In this document: piece after piece, positions 51,001-60,000 of the stretch
How positions within the stretch are numbered: position 1 is the first letter of the stretch
Layout: the number at the start of each line of letters is the position of its first letter
NCBI RefSeq assembly: GCF_005405265.1
Contig: NZ_BJDS01000001.1
Location: forward strand, 1-64,000
Source: Enterococcus songbeiensis
GTDB taxonomy: Bacteria; Bacillota; Bacilli; Lactobacillales; Enterococcaceae
Reading direction: 5' to 3'
DNA: 64,000 bases
Program-made: the position numbers

Positions 51001-54000
51001 ATCTAGAAGCAGTTCGTCTGCTGCTTCCAAAAATTGGCAATTTCTGGCTTCGTAATCAATCGTTGTTAGTTGATCCAGCATTACTTTACCTTTCGTTTTC
51101 ATGTTGTTCGCTTCATTTATTTTAATATATAGTGGATAATTTCTATTAGTTGTACGAATAGGTGCTACAATGACTACATTAGAATTATTCGCAATCACAT
51201 CATTACTTAAAACAATATATGGTCTTTTTCCTGTTTGTTCATGACCAGCTCTCGGAGCCGCATTTAACAACAGAATGTCTCCTTGTCGGGGTCTTTTTAC
51301 CATTTCTCATTTCCTACAGCTTCCCCTAAATCTTGCAGCTCTGTATGGAACGGTTCGCTGTGAAAATCTTTAAACAATTCTTCAATTGTGAATTCTGAAG
51401 GGATCACTTGTTCTAAAATAACTCTTTTTCTTCCATTGATTACTTCTGTTTCAATTATAATCTCATCATCCGTTTCTATGCCTAAGAAATTCATAATGTG
51501 TTTGGATAGGCGGATTCCATTGCTGTTTCCCCATTTTTTTACCGATAACGTTTCCATGTTAAAGACTCCTTTCGATTGTATATACCATAGCGTGCCATCT
51601 TTACTTTTCTTACGCTCCTGAGTGATAGGGAACACAACAACATTCCATAATGGTGAAGTTTCTCACTGGACGACTTGTGAAAATTTTTGTCTCTCATCTA
51701 ACAACTGGTCAACTGTATCTCTTCGTTGTATCGTCGCAATCATATATTGACTCATCACACTACAGGCCAATGCAGAGTCTAAATCCCACATCGCAGAAAT
51801 TTCGAGTAGGGTCCTCAGCTCATCTCCCTTCCTCCCCTCAATCAAACCCAGTTTCTTTCGCAAAAAACATGCTTGATCTAGATACCTTTGTCCACTTTCG
51901 ATGAATTCAATTGCCACCTCAAATTTCCGCTGTGAAAATTGCCTTGCTCCTGTAAAAAACTGTCTGCGCGCATTCTCAGCAGTATAGCTTATTTCATGTG
52001 CAATCTTCTCAAGTTGATCTTCTACTGTTTCTTTCATTCTCTTTTTTCAGCTTCTTTCTTAAGTTATTCTCTCTATTTTTTTCTTCCTGAAATTAAATAC
52101 GCAAAAAACTTGGAAATTTTCAAAAAAAATGAAATAGTCTAAAAAAATATCAAAATATTTTCATATCATCCGTACTCGCAAAAAAAAAACAGACCTGATC
52201 CACTCTATACTTGTAAAGTTAATCAAACCTGTCCACCAGTTACTCTCCATCAATGATTCGATTTTTTTGTATTGCTGTGCTTATCTGATTTCATAATCTT
52301 TTTCTATCTTTTTAATCAATTTTCTTAATTATTGTCACTTCCAGAATAAAATCCTTTTTTCGACTTGTTGAGCGAGTGAAAATAAAATCAGCCCGATTAT
52401 AGAAAGTAAAATAACAGAACTCAAAATAATATTTATATCATACATTTCATTTCCATAAACTAGTAAATACCCAAGTCCAGATTTAGCTCCCATCATCTCG
52501 CCAATTACAGCACCAGTCATGGCTTGTGTCACTGCGATTTTTACTCCAGACATTATCGAAGTTAATATAAATGGAAATTCCAATGTCTTAAACTGTTGCC
52601 CTTTTGTAGCACCGAATACTTTCAAAAGATCAAGATAAGCACTATTCATCTCCTCTAGCATCATTTGAACGTTCACAAGTATAGGAAATGATACCACTAG
52701 TATAACCAATGCTACTTTAGAACTGATTCCCAATCCGAACCACAAGATAAATAGAGGAGCCAAAGAGATTTTAGGTGCTACCTGTGCTATTACTAATATA
52801 GGCATAAACAATCGATTGATGATTTTCAGTTTTCCTAAAAGATATCCAAGAATTCCACCAACCAAAATGCCAAGAATGGTTCCCACAATTATTTCCAATA
52901 CAGTTGTTCCCACATTGGCCAATAAATCACCAGTAATTAGATATTCACAGAAGTATTTTGCTAAATTTATCGGCATAGGAAGAATCGCTTCAGATATCTT
53001 CAATACTATGACTGCTAATTGCCAAATTAATAGGATAACTATTCCCAAGAAAGTAGGATAAAGTATCTTTTTCATAATTATTTCTTCTCCTCACAGAAAT
53101 TAACAATCAGTTTCTCTGCAGAATACGATTCTTCAATCAATCCGTATTCGTCTAAGATTCGAATGTAGCTATTATATTTTTCTAAATCTGAATAACCAAA
53201 TCCATATTTAGCAGTATTATCGCTCTGCCATAAATGGGAAATAAATTCGTTTTTTATGACCTTCATAACTAGGTCTTCGCTTTGTTTAGCAGCTGGAGTA
53301 AAATCATTGATTGCAGTATTAACGCTCTCTAATAATCCATCCTGATAAATCAGAAAGTTCAGTGACCTATCTATTACCCGGTTCATTGACTGACAAATAG
53401 CTCTATTTTCTTTAAGAAATTTCTCAGAAGTAATCAGAACATTGCCAGATATAGGTATATAATCATTTAATCGAAATTCTAAAACATCTATACCCTGTTC
53501 TTTCAAATCATATTTTCGAAGCATCGAAAAACAGATGCCATCTACCTGATTAGTGACAAGAGCATTTACTATTGCCCCCGTTCCAATAATTTTAATGTGT
53601 ACATCGTCAACCGTCATTCCATATTGTTTCAAAATCATTTGAAGTTGAATAAAGTTAGGACTGCCAAAACTAGTAATTGCGATAGTTTTTCCTTTTAAAT
53701 CTTTTGGTGATCTAATTTCTGCACGTTTTTTAAACATAACGGCTCCTAGACCTTGTTGATAAGTGGAGTGAATTATCTTTACAGGCACTTCATTTCCTCT
53801 CCCAATAATTACTGGGTCAGAATTGGGAAATCCAAATTGCACATTATTCATTGCAACATTTTTTATGATCTCAACAGCTGATGAATAATAGAATTCTACA
53901 TCCAATCCTTCTTCAGCAAACCAGCCCTTTGATTTAGCTATATAAAGTGGAACATAATATGGTGTAGCGGAACCATCCAGTTGAATAGATATTTTTGTCA

Positions 54001-57000: not shown

Positions 57001-60000
57001 AATTGCTAAGAAAATTGGCAATGCACCAAATATAAATAATGCTCTCCAACCAAATACTGGAATAATCAATGCTGCTGCGATTGCTGCAATAATACTTCCA
57101 ACTTGTCCCGCAATTGTGACAAAAGAATTTACTCGTCCTCTTCTTTCAGAAGAAAAGGTATCGGCCATCATCGACATAATAACTCCGTATTCTCCACCCC
57201 CACCAACACCGACAAAGAAACGCAAAACATACACAATTACAATATTATTAGCAAAGGCCATCCCGCCGGTCGCAATAGCGAAAATTGCTACTGTAAGTAC
57301 AAACACTTTTGCTCGGCCTTTTCTATCAGCTAAAGTCCCAAAAATCAGTCCACCAGCAAGCATGCCGATATTCGTAATAGTTGAAATGAATCCCCCCGCT
57401 GTTCCACTTATACCAAAGTCTGTAATCATAGTTGCCAGTACATAAGAAAGCAACATCGTGCTCATGCTCTGTAATCCCAATCCACTCATAGACATCGCTA
57501 AAATACTTTTTTCTGGCCGACTCATTAGCTTTTTCTGATAGTCACGTTCTAAATTCTTCTCCATAATCTGCTCCTTTATAAAAATATTGACATTGATTGC
57601 TACGTAAATCCAAACGATTTTTACCTCTTCAAACAAAAAACAGACTCGATACATCCCACCGCTCGTGAAATGGATCAAGCCTGCATACCAGTTACTCTCC
57701 AACAATTTTTATTCAATTTTTCGATATTGTTGTGCTTGCGTTGCATTAATAACGTCCCCACGTTTCTTCCCAAAACCGATGCCTCGTTGCACTAGCACCC
57801 ACTCTCCTTTCCATTCAATTTCTTTTGCGATTACTGCGTTATGCGACAACACTTGAACTACCACCATATTCCCACCCTTTCTGATAGTAAAAATCGACAT
57901 AAAAAAAGAGGTACTAGACGACTGTCCAATACCTCTGACATAGCAAATAAACGAGCAATAACTTCCCTTAAAATTCTCCTAATTTTATCAAAAAAGTGCG
58001 ATAAACCGGTAGAAATCCAGCAAAAAATTAGGTACAATTAACAAGGTTAGTGCTTGCACTAACTATGGCAACTTGATTGATCAGGTCCAACTGATTTTTC
58101 AAGGCCTTGTGGTTTAGCGCCAACTAAACTGCAAGGTGCCTTTTTTTATTCGATTTAAACTATCTGAGTCTATTCTAATGAAAACGATTCCTATCTGTCA
58201 AGCGAACAAGGGTAAAAAGTTAAAAAAGATAGAATTTTCCGATAAGAGTAAGCCAACTCATGTAGTAGAGCATTTTTTTATTCAAAATCTACAGGTCTTG
58301 CAACTTCATTGCTTTCATCAAATTCAAATGCAATAGCATCCAAAATACGTTGACTTGATTCTCCATCCCCGTACGGATTTGAAGCTTTTGCCATTGCATG
58401 ATAGTGTTCCTCGTTATCGAGAAGTAATGAAGTTTCTTCAAAAACAGTTGCTTCATCCGTACCAACTAGTTTCAACGTTCCAGCTTCAATACCTTCTGGT
58501 CTTTCAGTTGTATCACGAAGAACTAGTACAGGTACACCAAGAGACGGTGCTTCTTCTTGAACTCCACCAGAATCAGACATAATCAAATGACTTTTATTGG
58601 CAATATTTTGAAAATCAACTACATCTAATGGTTCAATCAATTTGATTCGATCAGATTTAATCAGTGTATTTCTTGCCAGCTCACGAACTTTAGGATTTTT
58701 ATGGATTGGAAAAACAACCGCAATATCTTCATACTTTTCAATTAATCGATTGATTGCATGAAATACGTTTTCCATAGGTTTACCAAGATTTTCCCGTCGG
58801 TGCATTGTCACTAGAATAATTTTTTTATCACTAAGTTCATCAAGAAGTTCATTTTTATAATCTTCTCGTACTGTATACTTCATAGCATCAATAGCTGTGT
58901 TCCCAGTGATAAAAATCCTGCTTTCCTCATGATTTTCTACCAACAGATTTTGTTTACTTTGTGTAGTTGGCGCAAAGTAAATATCCGCTAATACATCTGT
59001 CACTTGCCGATTCATCTCTTCAGGAAAAGGCGAATATTTGTTCCAGGTACGTAATCCTGCTTCAACGTGACCAATCTTAATTTGACGATAGAAGCCTGCG
59101 ATAGATGCTGCAAAAGTTGTTGTTGTATCACCATGGACTAAAATAATATCCGGTTTTGCTTCTACAAGTACACTATCCAGCTCTTTGATTACACGACTAG
59201 TGATATCCGTTAACGTTTGTCCATCCTTCATAATGTTTAAATCATAATCTGGAGTAACTTGAAATACTTCCAGAACTTGATCTAACATTTGTCTGTGTTG
59301 TGCTGTAACAGTCACGATTGACTCAAAACGTTCATCTGCTTCAATAGCTTTCACTAATGGAGCCATTTTGATTGCTTCAGGTCGAGTGCCAAATACGGTC
59401 ATTATTTTTATTTTAGTCATTTTTATACTCCTATAATTTGTAAGCATCATCAAGGAGATTGTGTGTATCTAAAATTAATTTTCCTTTTAGCTTATCCAAG
59501 TTTTCTTTTAGATGGGTATGTTCTACCATTAGAACAATAATTTGAGAATTCTCTAAGAACGAATCAAAGTCCGTCACTTGATTATTCATAATTTGCTCTT
59601 TTAACATTGGATCAAATACTCGAAATGGTTCAGCAAAATTACTTTCCATTTTTTCAAATAGTTGCAACGTTGGACTTTCACGGATATCATCTACATCTTG
59701 TTTGTATGTCATACCATAGATACCAATTTTATTTCTATCCGTGATATTATTTTCTTTCATGATCGTAGTTAGACGATCCAAGACCAATTCAGGCATAGAT
59801 TCATTGATCTCTAACGCTGTTGAAATCAAATTTGTTAATCGGGGATAATCTCCCACCAAAAACCATGGATCTACTGGGATACAATGCCCCCCTACACCAG
59901 GTCCAGGACTTAGAATATTAACCCGTGGATGCATATTTGCAATTCGAATGATTTCATGCACGTCTAAGTCATCATGTCTAGCAATTTTAGTTAGCTCATT

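Follow-up and report, generated by a model that had tools for sequence, protein, structure and literature searches.

A putative two-stage attenuation cassette with a PRD-less co-antiterminator ahead of a nucleoside-type operon in Enterococcus songbeiensis

In BglG/SacY-family antiterminators, a co-antiterminator (CAT) RNA-binding domain is joined to regulation domains of the phosphotransferase system (PTS), known as PRDs. According to a 2025 review, antiterminators with a CAT domain always depend on regulatory domains, and two PRDs are present in more than 95% of the sequences (PMC12591593). Isolated CAT domains are reported to recognize the ribonucleic antiterminator (RAT) unaided, to dimerize, and to be constitutively active in antitermination (PMC3575810, from which the description of the 29-nt RAT used here for comparison was also taken). 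The present analysis concerns a stretch of 64,000 nt from Enterococcus songbeiensis (contig NZ_BJDS01000001.1, positions 1 to 64,000; hereafter the window), in which a cassette of ~590 bp that encodes a CAT domain without PRDs precedes a block of six transport and catabolic genes (the cargo). All elements of this finding are located on the minus strand. The cassette is interpreted as a two-stage attenuator that controls a nucleoside-type operon, with the six genes forming one operon whose substrate would be a pyrimidine-type (uracil-like) nucleoside or a related compound, imported by the MFS permease and the ThiY-like ABC importer and cleaved through phosphorolysis by the uridine-phosphorylase-like enzyme; the probability of this joint reading is placed at roughly 0.6.

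The six genes (57564..52335) were tightly packed, with intergenic gaps of at most 14 nt or overlaps, as determined from the listing of open reading frames (ORFs), Pfam, and NCBIfam. The Pfam domain scan covered the ORFs in 47.9-64 kb and a gene pair at 22775..25605. A preliminary description of this region had reported a major facilitator superfamily (MFS) transporter, a nucleoside phosphorylase-like enzyme, and a four-gene NitT/TauT-type ATP-binding cassette (ABC) importer with an NMT1-like lipoprotein, and the Pfam assignments of all six proteins matched this gene set (Table 1). The binding protein had an N-terminus of the lipoprotein type (...ALSSSC). The statement in the preliminary description that the operon contains no enzyme II (EII) permease was also correct, as the domain scan of the operon contained neither EIIB nor EIIC. 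RAT-plus-terminator elements were located on both sides of the six-gene block.

The gene directly ahead of the first RAT encodes a 52-aa protein with PF03123 CAT_RBD as its sole domain (E=1.3e-12; 47.9 bits, cut-off 25). It aligned end to end with SacY(1-55) (1auu), GlcT (3rio), and LicT-CAT (1l1c), whereas PRD1 and PRD2 were absent and the NCBIfam models of GlcT, LicT, and BglG matched in profile positions 1-46 only. The protein therefore contains no target for phosphorylation by the PTS, and the absence of an encoded EII partner may be due to the lack of PRDs in the antiterminator. The label "BglG-type" that was previously given to the switch consequently needs to be replaced. The protein was 100% identical to a 52-aa E. 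songbeiensis entry that NCBI lists as "CAT RNA binding domain-containing protein". Eight close homologues were retrieved by a word-indexed search (75-94% identity), including five of 52 aa, two over-extended ORF calls (76 and 81 aa), and a 46-aa protein with a frameshifted C-terminus in E. mediterraneensis. The ending ...KIE* was found in all seven homologues with an intact C-terminus, and the stop codon was conserved. An upstream ATG, which underlies ORF calls of 63-81 aa, was rejected as coding because the frame differs between loci. When 1.84 billion representative proteins were scanned in full with HMMER, no more than six relatives reached E<=1e-3, and their lengths were 46-109 aa. Searching a genome-contig collection with the CAT alignment gave 40 pattern matches, none of which was confirmed, and the family seems to be absent or masked there. 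Pairwise comparison of six cassette copies yielded ratios of nonsynonymous to synonymous divergence (dN/dS) of 0.06-0.25 in 14 of the 15 pairs and 0.44 in the remaining one, at dS values of 0.2-2.3. These values indicate that the CAT gene is under purifying selection, and the sequence comparisons point to a natural, conserved family that consists of the RNA-binding domain alone.

The RAT-like motif GGAGAGTAACTGGTNNNCAGG occurred exactly twice in the 64 kb, at 57700 and 52248, and not at all in shuffled sequence. Each occurrence overlapped the 5' arm of an intrinsic terminator, in agreement with the two RAT attenuators that had been reported. The segment comprising RAT1 and terminator T1 folded at -26 kcal/mol (z=-3.6), and the overlap followed the classical geometry. 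The match of RAT1 and RAT2 to the canonical RAT consensus was judged against what we take to be the RATs of Bacillus subtilis. A search of Rfam returned no match for RAT, either at the gathering threshold or at E<=10. One RAT followed each CAT gene at all cassette loci, and T1 was retained together with it and carried compensatory changes.

Upstream of the CAT gene, a leader RNA of ~260 nt ends in a further terminator, T0. The minimum free energy of the whole leader was -76.6 kcal/mol (z=-4.3), and that of T0 alone was -19.1 kcal/mol (z=-4.9). In an alignment of 12 leader sequences, 97.8% of the cells were paired, as compared with at most 44% when the partners were slid, and compensatory changes were observed in 15 pairs, including nine in P1, one in P2b, and five in T0. 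P3 covaried by direct reading (GUGC/GCAC, AUACC/GGUAU, AUGC/GCAU, and GUGU/ACAC). P0, P2a, and a long-range AUAGU/GCUAU helix were invariant and thus provided no covariation signal; the leader also contained invariant junction strings. Leader identity between cassette copies was 80-96%, which is above the expectation from the synonymous divergence of the adjacent CAT gene. No Rfam family matched the leader at the gathering threshold or at E<=10, and no regulator gene linked to it was found. A search for an alternative structure put forward TTGTACCTAA as a helix competing with T0; it was rejected, as its pairing with the T0 arm is limited to 3-5 nt and showed no covariation by direct reading. 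The leader is a candidate new riboregulator.

Alignment of the surroundings of nine copies showed that the cassette is sharply bounded at both ends and that its order is promoter, leader, T0, a conserved Shine-Dalgarno sequence, CAT gene, RAT, and T1. Homology begins ~25 nt upstream of the -35 hexamer and ends directly after the U-tract of T1. The promoter was conserved in all of the copies and was the best match in 49.8-58.4 kb (11 of 12 positions) in a consensus scan of 8.6 kb, which detected no promoter match between T1 and the start of the MFS gene. The Shine-Dalgarno sequence of the CAT gene follows T0 by ~25 nt, a space too short for a promoter between them.

At least four other cargos were identified behind the cassette in other enterococci. 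In Enterococcus sp. JM9B and a Logan contig, it was followed by EIIA_2, EIIB, EIIC, and glycoside hydrolase family 1 (GH1) genes, i.e., a Lac-type PTS with GH1; in JM9B, consecutive accession numbers on one 110.8-kb contig imply the same gene order from CAT to the 124-aa gene as in the window. On another contig, the cassette was followed by an SBP_bac_1 sugar ABC importer with DUF624. The commonest form, found on human-gut contigs, had EamA, Lac-family EIIA, EIIC, and EIIB, and an MlrC-like protein behind the cassette, and E. mediterraneensis had a Man-family PTS with SIS and aminotransferase genes. One locus (L006) was syntenic with the window, with an exopolysaccharide cluster upstream and orthologues of a 102-aa and a 135-aa protein downstream (58 and 62% identity, respectively), and a PTS-GH1 cargo in between. 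The comparison of these loci suggests that the cassette is a portable module that heads unrelated cargos. IS66-family elements were observed beside or interrupting several cassette copies (L006, 3803-4177; L008-L010, downstream of T1; and L016), and these may be relevant to the mobility or decay of the cassette.

The leader was also found without CAT or RAT. A pattern scan placed it (~73% identical) ahead of sugar ABC or GH2 operons in E. faecium plasmids, E. lactis, E. casseliflavus, E. innesii, Ca. E. testudinis, and two further species, whereas on one further contig the CAT-less leader was followed by unrelated sequence. Together, the leader loci besides the window were L005-L008, L011, L013-L022, and L024. 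No CAT remnants were found in the CAT-less leader loci. A phage collection contained one trivial match of 74%, in an unannotated 4.4-kb record. A second conserved motif, CAUYCCUAGG...GGCAAGYC..GGUUUYUAUUC, was noted between T0 and the first gene at the CAT-less loci (L013, ~5290-5350; L014, ~5320-5370; and equivalent positions in L017-L020).

Table 1. Features of the cassette, the six-gene block, and the downstream region in the window.
Feature	Position	Strand	Evidence or remark
Sigma-70-type promoter, TTGACA-18-TAGAAT	58201..58172	-	Cassette 5' end
cre-like box (cre, catabolite-responsive element) TAGGAATCGTTTTCA	58193..58179	-	Between the promoter hexamers; direct sequence reading
Structured leader RNA (~260 nt) ending in T0	58165..57900	-	Folding, covariation alignment
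P1 hairpin of leader	58137..58104	-	Covariation
Terminator T0 stem	57936..57907	-	13-bp stem, then U7
Stand-alone CAT RNA-binding protein, 52 aa	57867..57709	-	Pfam CAT_RBD PF03123; preceded by Shine-Dalgarno AAAGGGTGGG
RAT1, 29-nt RAT-like hairpin GGAGAGUAACUGGUAUGCAGGCUUGAUCC	57700..57672	-	Motif scan, folding
Terminator T1	57684..57634	-	5' arm overlaps RAT1 3' half; cassette 3' end
MFS permease	57564..56362	-	Pfam MFS_1, E=4e-54
Uridine-phosphorylase-like enzyme	56347..55601	-	Pfam PNP_UDP_1, E=1.8e-31; signature RCGGCGAW
ABC ATPase, NitT/TauT type	55595..54855	-	Pfam ABC_tran
ABC permease 1	54858..54100	-	Pfam BPD_transp_1
NMT1/THI5-like substrate-binding lipoprotein	54097..53078	-	Pfam NMT1, E=4.8e-40
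ABC permease 2	53075..52335	-	Pfam BPD_transp_1
Second copy of cassette 3' end	52282..52177	-	CAT 3' remnant, RAT2, and T2; alignment, repeat scan, folding
RAT2	52248..52220	-	
Terminator T2	52234..52187	-	Followed by U10
124-aa EIIA-Lac-like paralog, divergent	52037..51663	-	No residue aligned with the phosphorylatable His
MazE-like and MazF (PemK) toxin-antitoxin pair	51635..50947	-	PemK_toxin PF02452, E=1.1e-23; antitoxin by KWGNSNGIRL motif, read directly
102-aa and 135-aa EIIA-Lac-like paralogs	50709..49987	-	Orthologous to the pair after the PTS-GH1 cargo in L006

In the proposed mechanism, the sigma-A promoter, which would be catabolite-repressible via the cre-like box, transcribes the leader as far as T0 in the first stage. 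Read-through of T0 would be a prerequisite for the synthesis of CAT. As the CAT gene is located behind T0 and a conserved structured leader, any regulated step is probably upstream of the RAT. In the second stage, the PRD-less CAT, which is expected to behave like isolated CAT domains because it has no PRDs, would bind the nascent RAT1 as a constitutively active dimer and block T1, thereby allowing the polymerase to enter the cargo. CAT probably acts likewise at RAT2 and T2, admitting the polymerase into the downstream EIIA-like gene. The amount of CAT, rather than phosphorylation by the PTS, would then be the control variable, so that no EII partner is needed, and the CAT/RAT stage would serve as a relay or threshold. 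A bolder extension is offered only tentatively and at clearly less than even odds: the 590-bp unit would be a portable two-stage attenuator whose leader belongs to a new enterococcal class of riboregulators that senses general carbon status (as a riboswitch or as a target of a protein or small RNA), with CAT/RAT as a constitutive relay or threshold, and homologous recombination inside the CAT 3' end-RAT-terminator segment would move the unit between unrelated catabolic operons, in the present case taking a nucleoside-salvage module from PucR control.

The nucleoside-type reading of the cargo, which the preliminary description had proposed without an exact substrate, appears to be right at that level. 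The phosphorylase retained GDPxR, REF, the R of RIGTTG, GQxR, EME, and the C-terminal R in an alignment with solved and bona fide uridine phosphorylases. It was 100% identical to an NCBI protein of E. songbeiensis, and belonged to a clade with 46-74% identity, as compared with ~33-35% for true uridine phosphorylases. Where uridine phosphorylases have RIGTTGAI, this clade carries RCGGCGAW without variation, and the Cys at the position of the phosphate-site Thr suggests altered chemistry or specificity. Exact look-up of the window phosphorylase and of the protein P0111 returned no contig. The closest solved structure to the binding protein was ThiY, which binds a substituted pyrimidine, N-formyl-4-amino-5-aminomethyl-2-methylpyrimidine (FAMP; 3ix1). 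Pfam and NCBIfam identified an NMT1-family binding protein, TauC/SsuC-like permeases, and a TauB/SsuB/NrtCD-like ATPase together in one operon. The ATPase and the permeases were nearest to the SaoA/TauB/SsuC/nitrate group in NCBIfam, with all scores below the equivalog cut-offs; therefore, a substrate class was not assigned. The nearest NCBIfam family of the MFS permease was aromatic acid/H+ symporter, with a score below the cut-off.

As for gene order, the MFS-phosphorylase core was also found in other taxa, and the regulatory gene beside it was of the PucR family. In Lacticaseibacillus paracasei, Erysipelothrix, and Coriobacterium, an orthologous MFS gene (67-71% identity) always precedes the phosphorylase gene, and the pair adjoins a divergent PucR-family gene. 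Erysipelothrix contained orthologues of all six proteins around the PucR gene (46-71% identity), with all four ABC genes next door (46-55% identity; ATPase, 55%). In L. paracasei, a 396-aa gene of the Metalloenzyme family (PF01676), which is likely a phosphopentomutase, was located beside the pair, and the pair of Coriobacterium was read from Pfam domains as lying inside a pyr operon. In the lineage of the window, the cassette would have acquired a cargo whose MFS-phosphorylase core adjoins a PucR-type regulator in three other taxa.

The cargo was bracketed by a direct repeat of ~110 nt that comprises the CAT 3' end, RAT, and terminator. Upstream of RAT2, alignment identified a ~30-nt remnant of the 3' coding end of the CAT gene, and the RAT and terminator segments were the two best direct repeats in 6.2 kb, with start-to-start spacings of 5452 and 5451 nt. 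The bracketing repeat suggests recombinational cargo swapping, and capture probably occurred via recombination inside the CAT 3' end-RAT-terminator segment, for example as a single-crossover insertion or an exchange between two cassettes. The GC content of the cargo (0.32-0.39) was similar to that of the flanks, and base composition provided no sign of a recent foreign origin.

Searches with Lac- and Man-family EII proteins (tblastn) detected no EIIB or EIIC of either family anywhere in the window. The sole PTS permease found in these searches and in the domain scan, which covered the ORFs in 47.9-64 kb and this pair, was encoded 30 kb away (22775..25605, minus strand), where a canonical BglG-family antiterminator of 278 aa (CAT and two PRDs) is followed by a 660-aa EIICBA. 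This pair has its own ptsG/GlcT-like RAT and terminator leader (whole unit 22775..25800, minus strand); the organism therefore has both forms of antiterminator. The EIIA-Lac-like paralogs that had been noticed after the second attenuator appear to be real, if divergent, relatives of EIIA-Lac: tblastn comparison of the three with bona fide EIIA-Lac yielded E=3e-15, 9e-10, and 2e-5. The Pfam PTS_IIA model (PF02255) scored the 135-aa paralog at 26.3 bits (cut-off 27) and the 102-aa paralog at E=0.0036, and did not match the 124-aa paralog. A His aligned with the EIIA-Lac phosphorylation site was present in the 135-aa paralog and absent from the other two; the site was located with what is presumably the LacF sequence. 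Homologue searches with the 124-aa protein retrieved only itself, and the single-sequence AlphaFold model built for the 135-aa paralog (pLDDT 66, pTM 0.31) was not good enough to support a fold search. The three paralogs have neither EIIB nor EIIC nearby and may either act as regulators or be left over from an ancestral PTS cargo. The MazE/MazF-like pair, inserted among them, was absent from the syntenic locus L006. In summary, the observation made in the preliminary description was confirmed and its interpretation was partly supported. The proposed independence of antitermination from the PTS is supported at the level of the protein, which lacks PRDs, but is not complete, in view of the cre-like box on the promoter and the EIIA-Lac-like paralogs after RAT2. 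The preliminary description had missed the CAT-only protein, T0 and its leader, the portable cassette, and the PucR context of the cargo relatives.

Several other explanations were considered for this arrangement. The 52-aa ORF and the RATs could be the remains of a decayed bglG-type operon, with the cargo expressed through leaky read-through or an undetected promoter. Such decay would account for the missing PRDs, the degenerate RAT2 with its truncated CAT remnant, the IS66 elements that interrupt some sister loci, and the frameshifted 46-aa CAT of E. mediterraneensis. However, the length, stop codon, and Shine-Dalgarno sequence of the ORF are conserved in the intact variants, dN/dS is as low as 0.06-0.25 in nearly all pairs (14/15) at dS of up to 2.3, and RAT and T1 have been kept after each copy, with compensatory changes in T1. 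Furthermore, strong terminators at T0 and T1 would silence the cargo unless they are overcome, and no promoter-like site follows T1. Debris is therefore considered a very improbable explanation. A different possibility is that the link to the PTS was split off rather than lost, so that CAT is switched in trans by a separate protein, either one of the EIIA-Lac-like paralogs or a PRD protein encoded elsewhere. The position of the three paralogs after the operon, one of them directly behind RAT2, the aligned His of the 135-aa paralog (with the LacF sequence presumed as above), and the PTS operons headed by several sister cassettes are in line with this. On the other hand, the paralogs were found in the window and L006 only, and none occurred in the covered sequence of L005, L011/12, and L024; two of them (124 and 102 aa) lack the His, and the 52-aa protein has no domain able to receive a signal. 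Isolated CAT domains are moreover active by themselves (PMC3575810), and control in trans is regarded as unlikely.

The leader with T0 could also be an independent small-RNA gene or an insulator, in which case a constant leak would set a fixed low level of expression and CcpA acting at cre would be the sole regulation. In line with this, the leader is equipped with a promoter of its own and a strong terminator, stands with neither CAT nor RAT in E. faecium, E. lactis, E. casseliflavus, and others, and no antiterminator helix was found. However, it sits directly upstream of a catabolic or transport operon, and in the same orientation, at every locus except the contig with unrelated sequence, and the Shine-Dalgarno sequence of CAT follows T0 by ~25 nt with no space for a promoter. 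In T0, a covarying stem carries a conserved apical sequence, a pattern typical of recognized regulatory hairpins. A separate small RNA or insulator is also regarded as unlikely.

Several points weigh against the two-stage attenuation of a nucleoside-type operon that is favored here. No covarying antiterminator helix that competes with T0 was found, and regulated read-through of T0 is therefore assumed. Since the same leader precedes cargos of unrelated specificity, it cannot sense the substrate of the cargo, which leaves substrate-specific induction unexplained. The binding of CAT to RAT1 and RAT2 is a prediction, RAT2 lacks the GGA/UCC basal pairs, and the fold of T2 was no better than that of shuffled sequences (z=-1.4). 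A weak internal promoter after T1 could escape a consensus scan. With regard to the cargo, the phosphorylase was nearest to uridine phosphorylase in NCBIfam but scored below both equivalog cut-offs, with 145.5 bits for TIGR01718 (cut-off 280.3) and 135.5 bits for NF008383 (cut-off 262), and its phosphate-contacting TT is replaced by GC; a uracil-like nucleoside or related compound is accordingly the best reading of the substrate rather than an identification.

Other features of the surroundings were recorded. A polysaccharide biosynthesis cluster (58278..63862, minus strand) is located directly upstream of the cassette; its UDP-GlcNAc 2-epimerase was domain-checked, and genes resembling those of a UDP-ManNAc dehydrogenase, a flippase, an acetyltransferase, and a polymerase were recognized from their translations. 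Polysaccharide genes were also upstream of the cassette in L006 and L008. On the other side, a sortase gene (PF04203) and two surface proteins, one of 762 aa with an LPLTG motif, were found at 45681..49590 (minus strand), which looks like a pilus or adhesin-type cluster. A bacterial small signal recognition particle RNA was located at 9493..9579 (minus strand; RF00169, 55.6 bits).

Literature searches on stand-alone CAT proteins, on the PucR-phosphorylase-MFS cluster, and on the conserved sequence strings turned up no account of this system. A natural, conserved CAT-only family would mean that the RNA-binding module is separable from the PTS and can take on the role of a generic relay, with cassette cargos that span PTS, ABC, MFS, nucleoside, and peptidase-like types. 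The uncatalogued leader RNA is widespread in Enterococcus carbohydrate operons, including those on clinical E. faecium plasmids. The locus also provides an entry point to a conserved, uncharacterized module of phosphorylase, MFS permease, and ThiY-like ABC importer, and in Gram-positive bacteria the cassette could find use as a compact expression switch that does not depend on the PTS.

The cargo resembles several described systems in part. Similar to uridine phosphorylase (Udp, NP-I), the window enzyme has the PNP_UDP_1 fold, and its closest solved structures are all uridine phosphorylases; the putative phosphate, ribose, and uracil residues (R, R, R, Q, R, EME, R) are kept, with GC in place of the phosphate-contacting TT; in contrast to Udp, with which it shares ~33-35% identity, it belongs to a distinct clade that is always paired with an MFS permease. 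The importer shares one ATPase, TauC/SsuC-like permeases, and an NMT1/THI5-like binding protein with the ThiXYZ and NitT/TauT systems (Transporter Classification 3.A.1.16-17), but it has two permease genes, is linked to a phosphorylase and, in Erysipelothrix, to PucR, and lacks a THI-box riboswitch as well as any link to sulfur or nitrate genes. The PucR-regulated purine/pyrimidine clusters contain the same MFS-phosphorylase core, whereas here the CAT/RAT cassette occupies the regulatory position and no PucR gene is present.

With respect to the switch itself, the BglG, SacY, LicT, and GlcT systems have a homologous CAT and a 29-nt RAT-like hairpin whose 3' half lies on the 5' arm of a terminator, and the location of the regulator gene directly upstream of the RAT is as in licT-bglPH. 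SacY(1-55) and LicT-CAT are of the same length and fold class, but these are laboratory truncations, whereas the CAT-only genes of the enterococci form a natural, conserved family. Unlike the BglG, SacY, LicT, and GlcT systems, the window protein has no PRD1 or PRD2, and hence no histidines for phosphorylation by EIIB or HPr; its operon has no cognate EII and its cargo is not a sugar PTS, although some sister cassettes carry EII; and its regulator gene stands behind a long structured leader and T0, which would gate it. The most fitting description of the finding is a variant of BglG/SacY-type antitermination, namely a natural PRD-less CAT cassette with interchangeable cargo.

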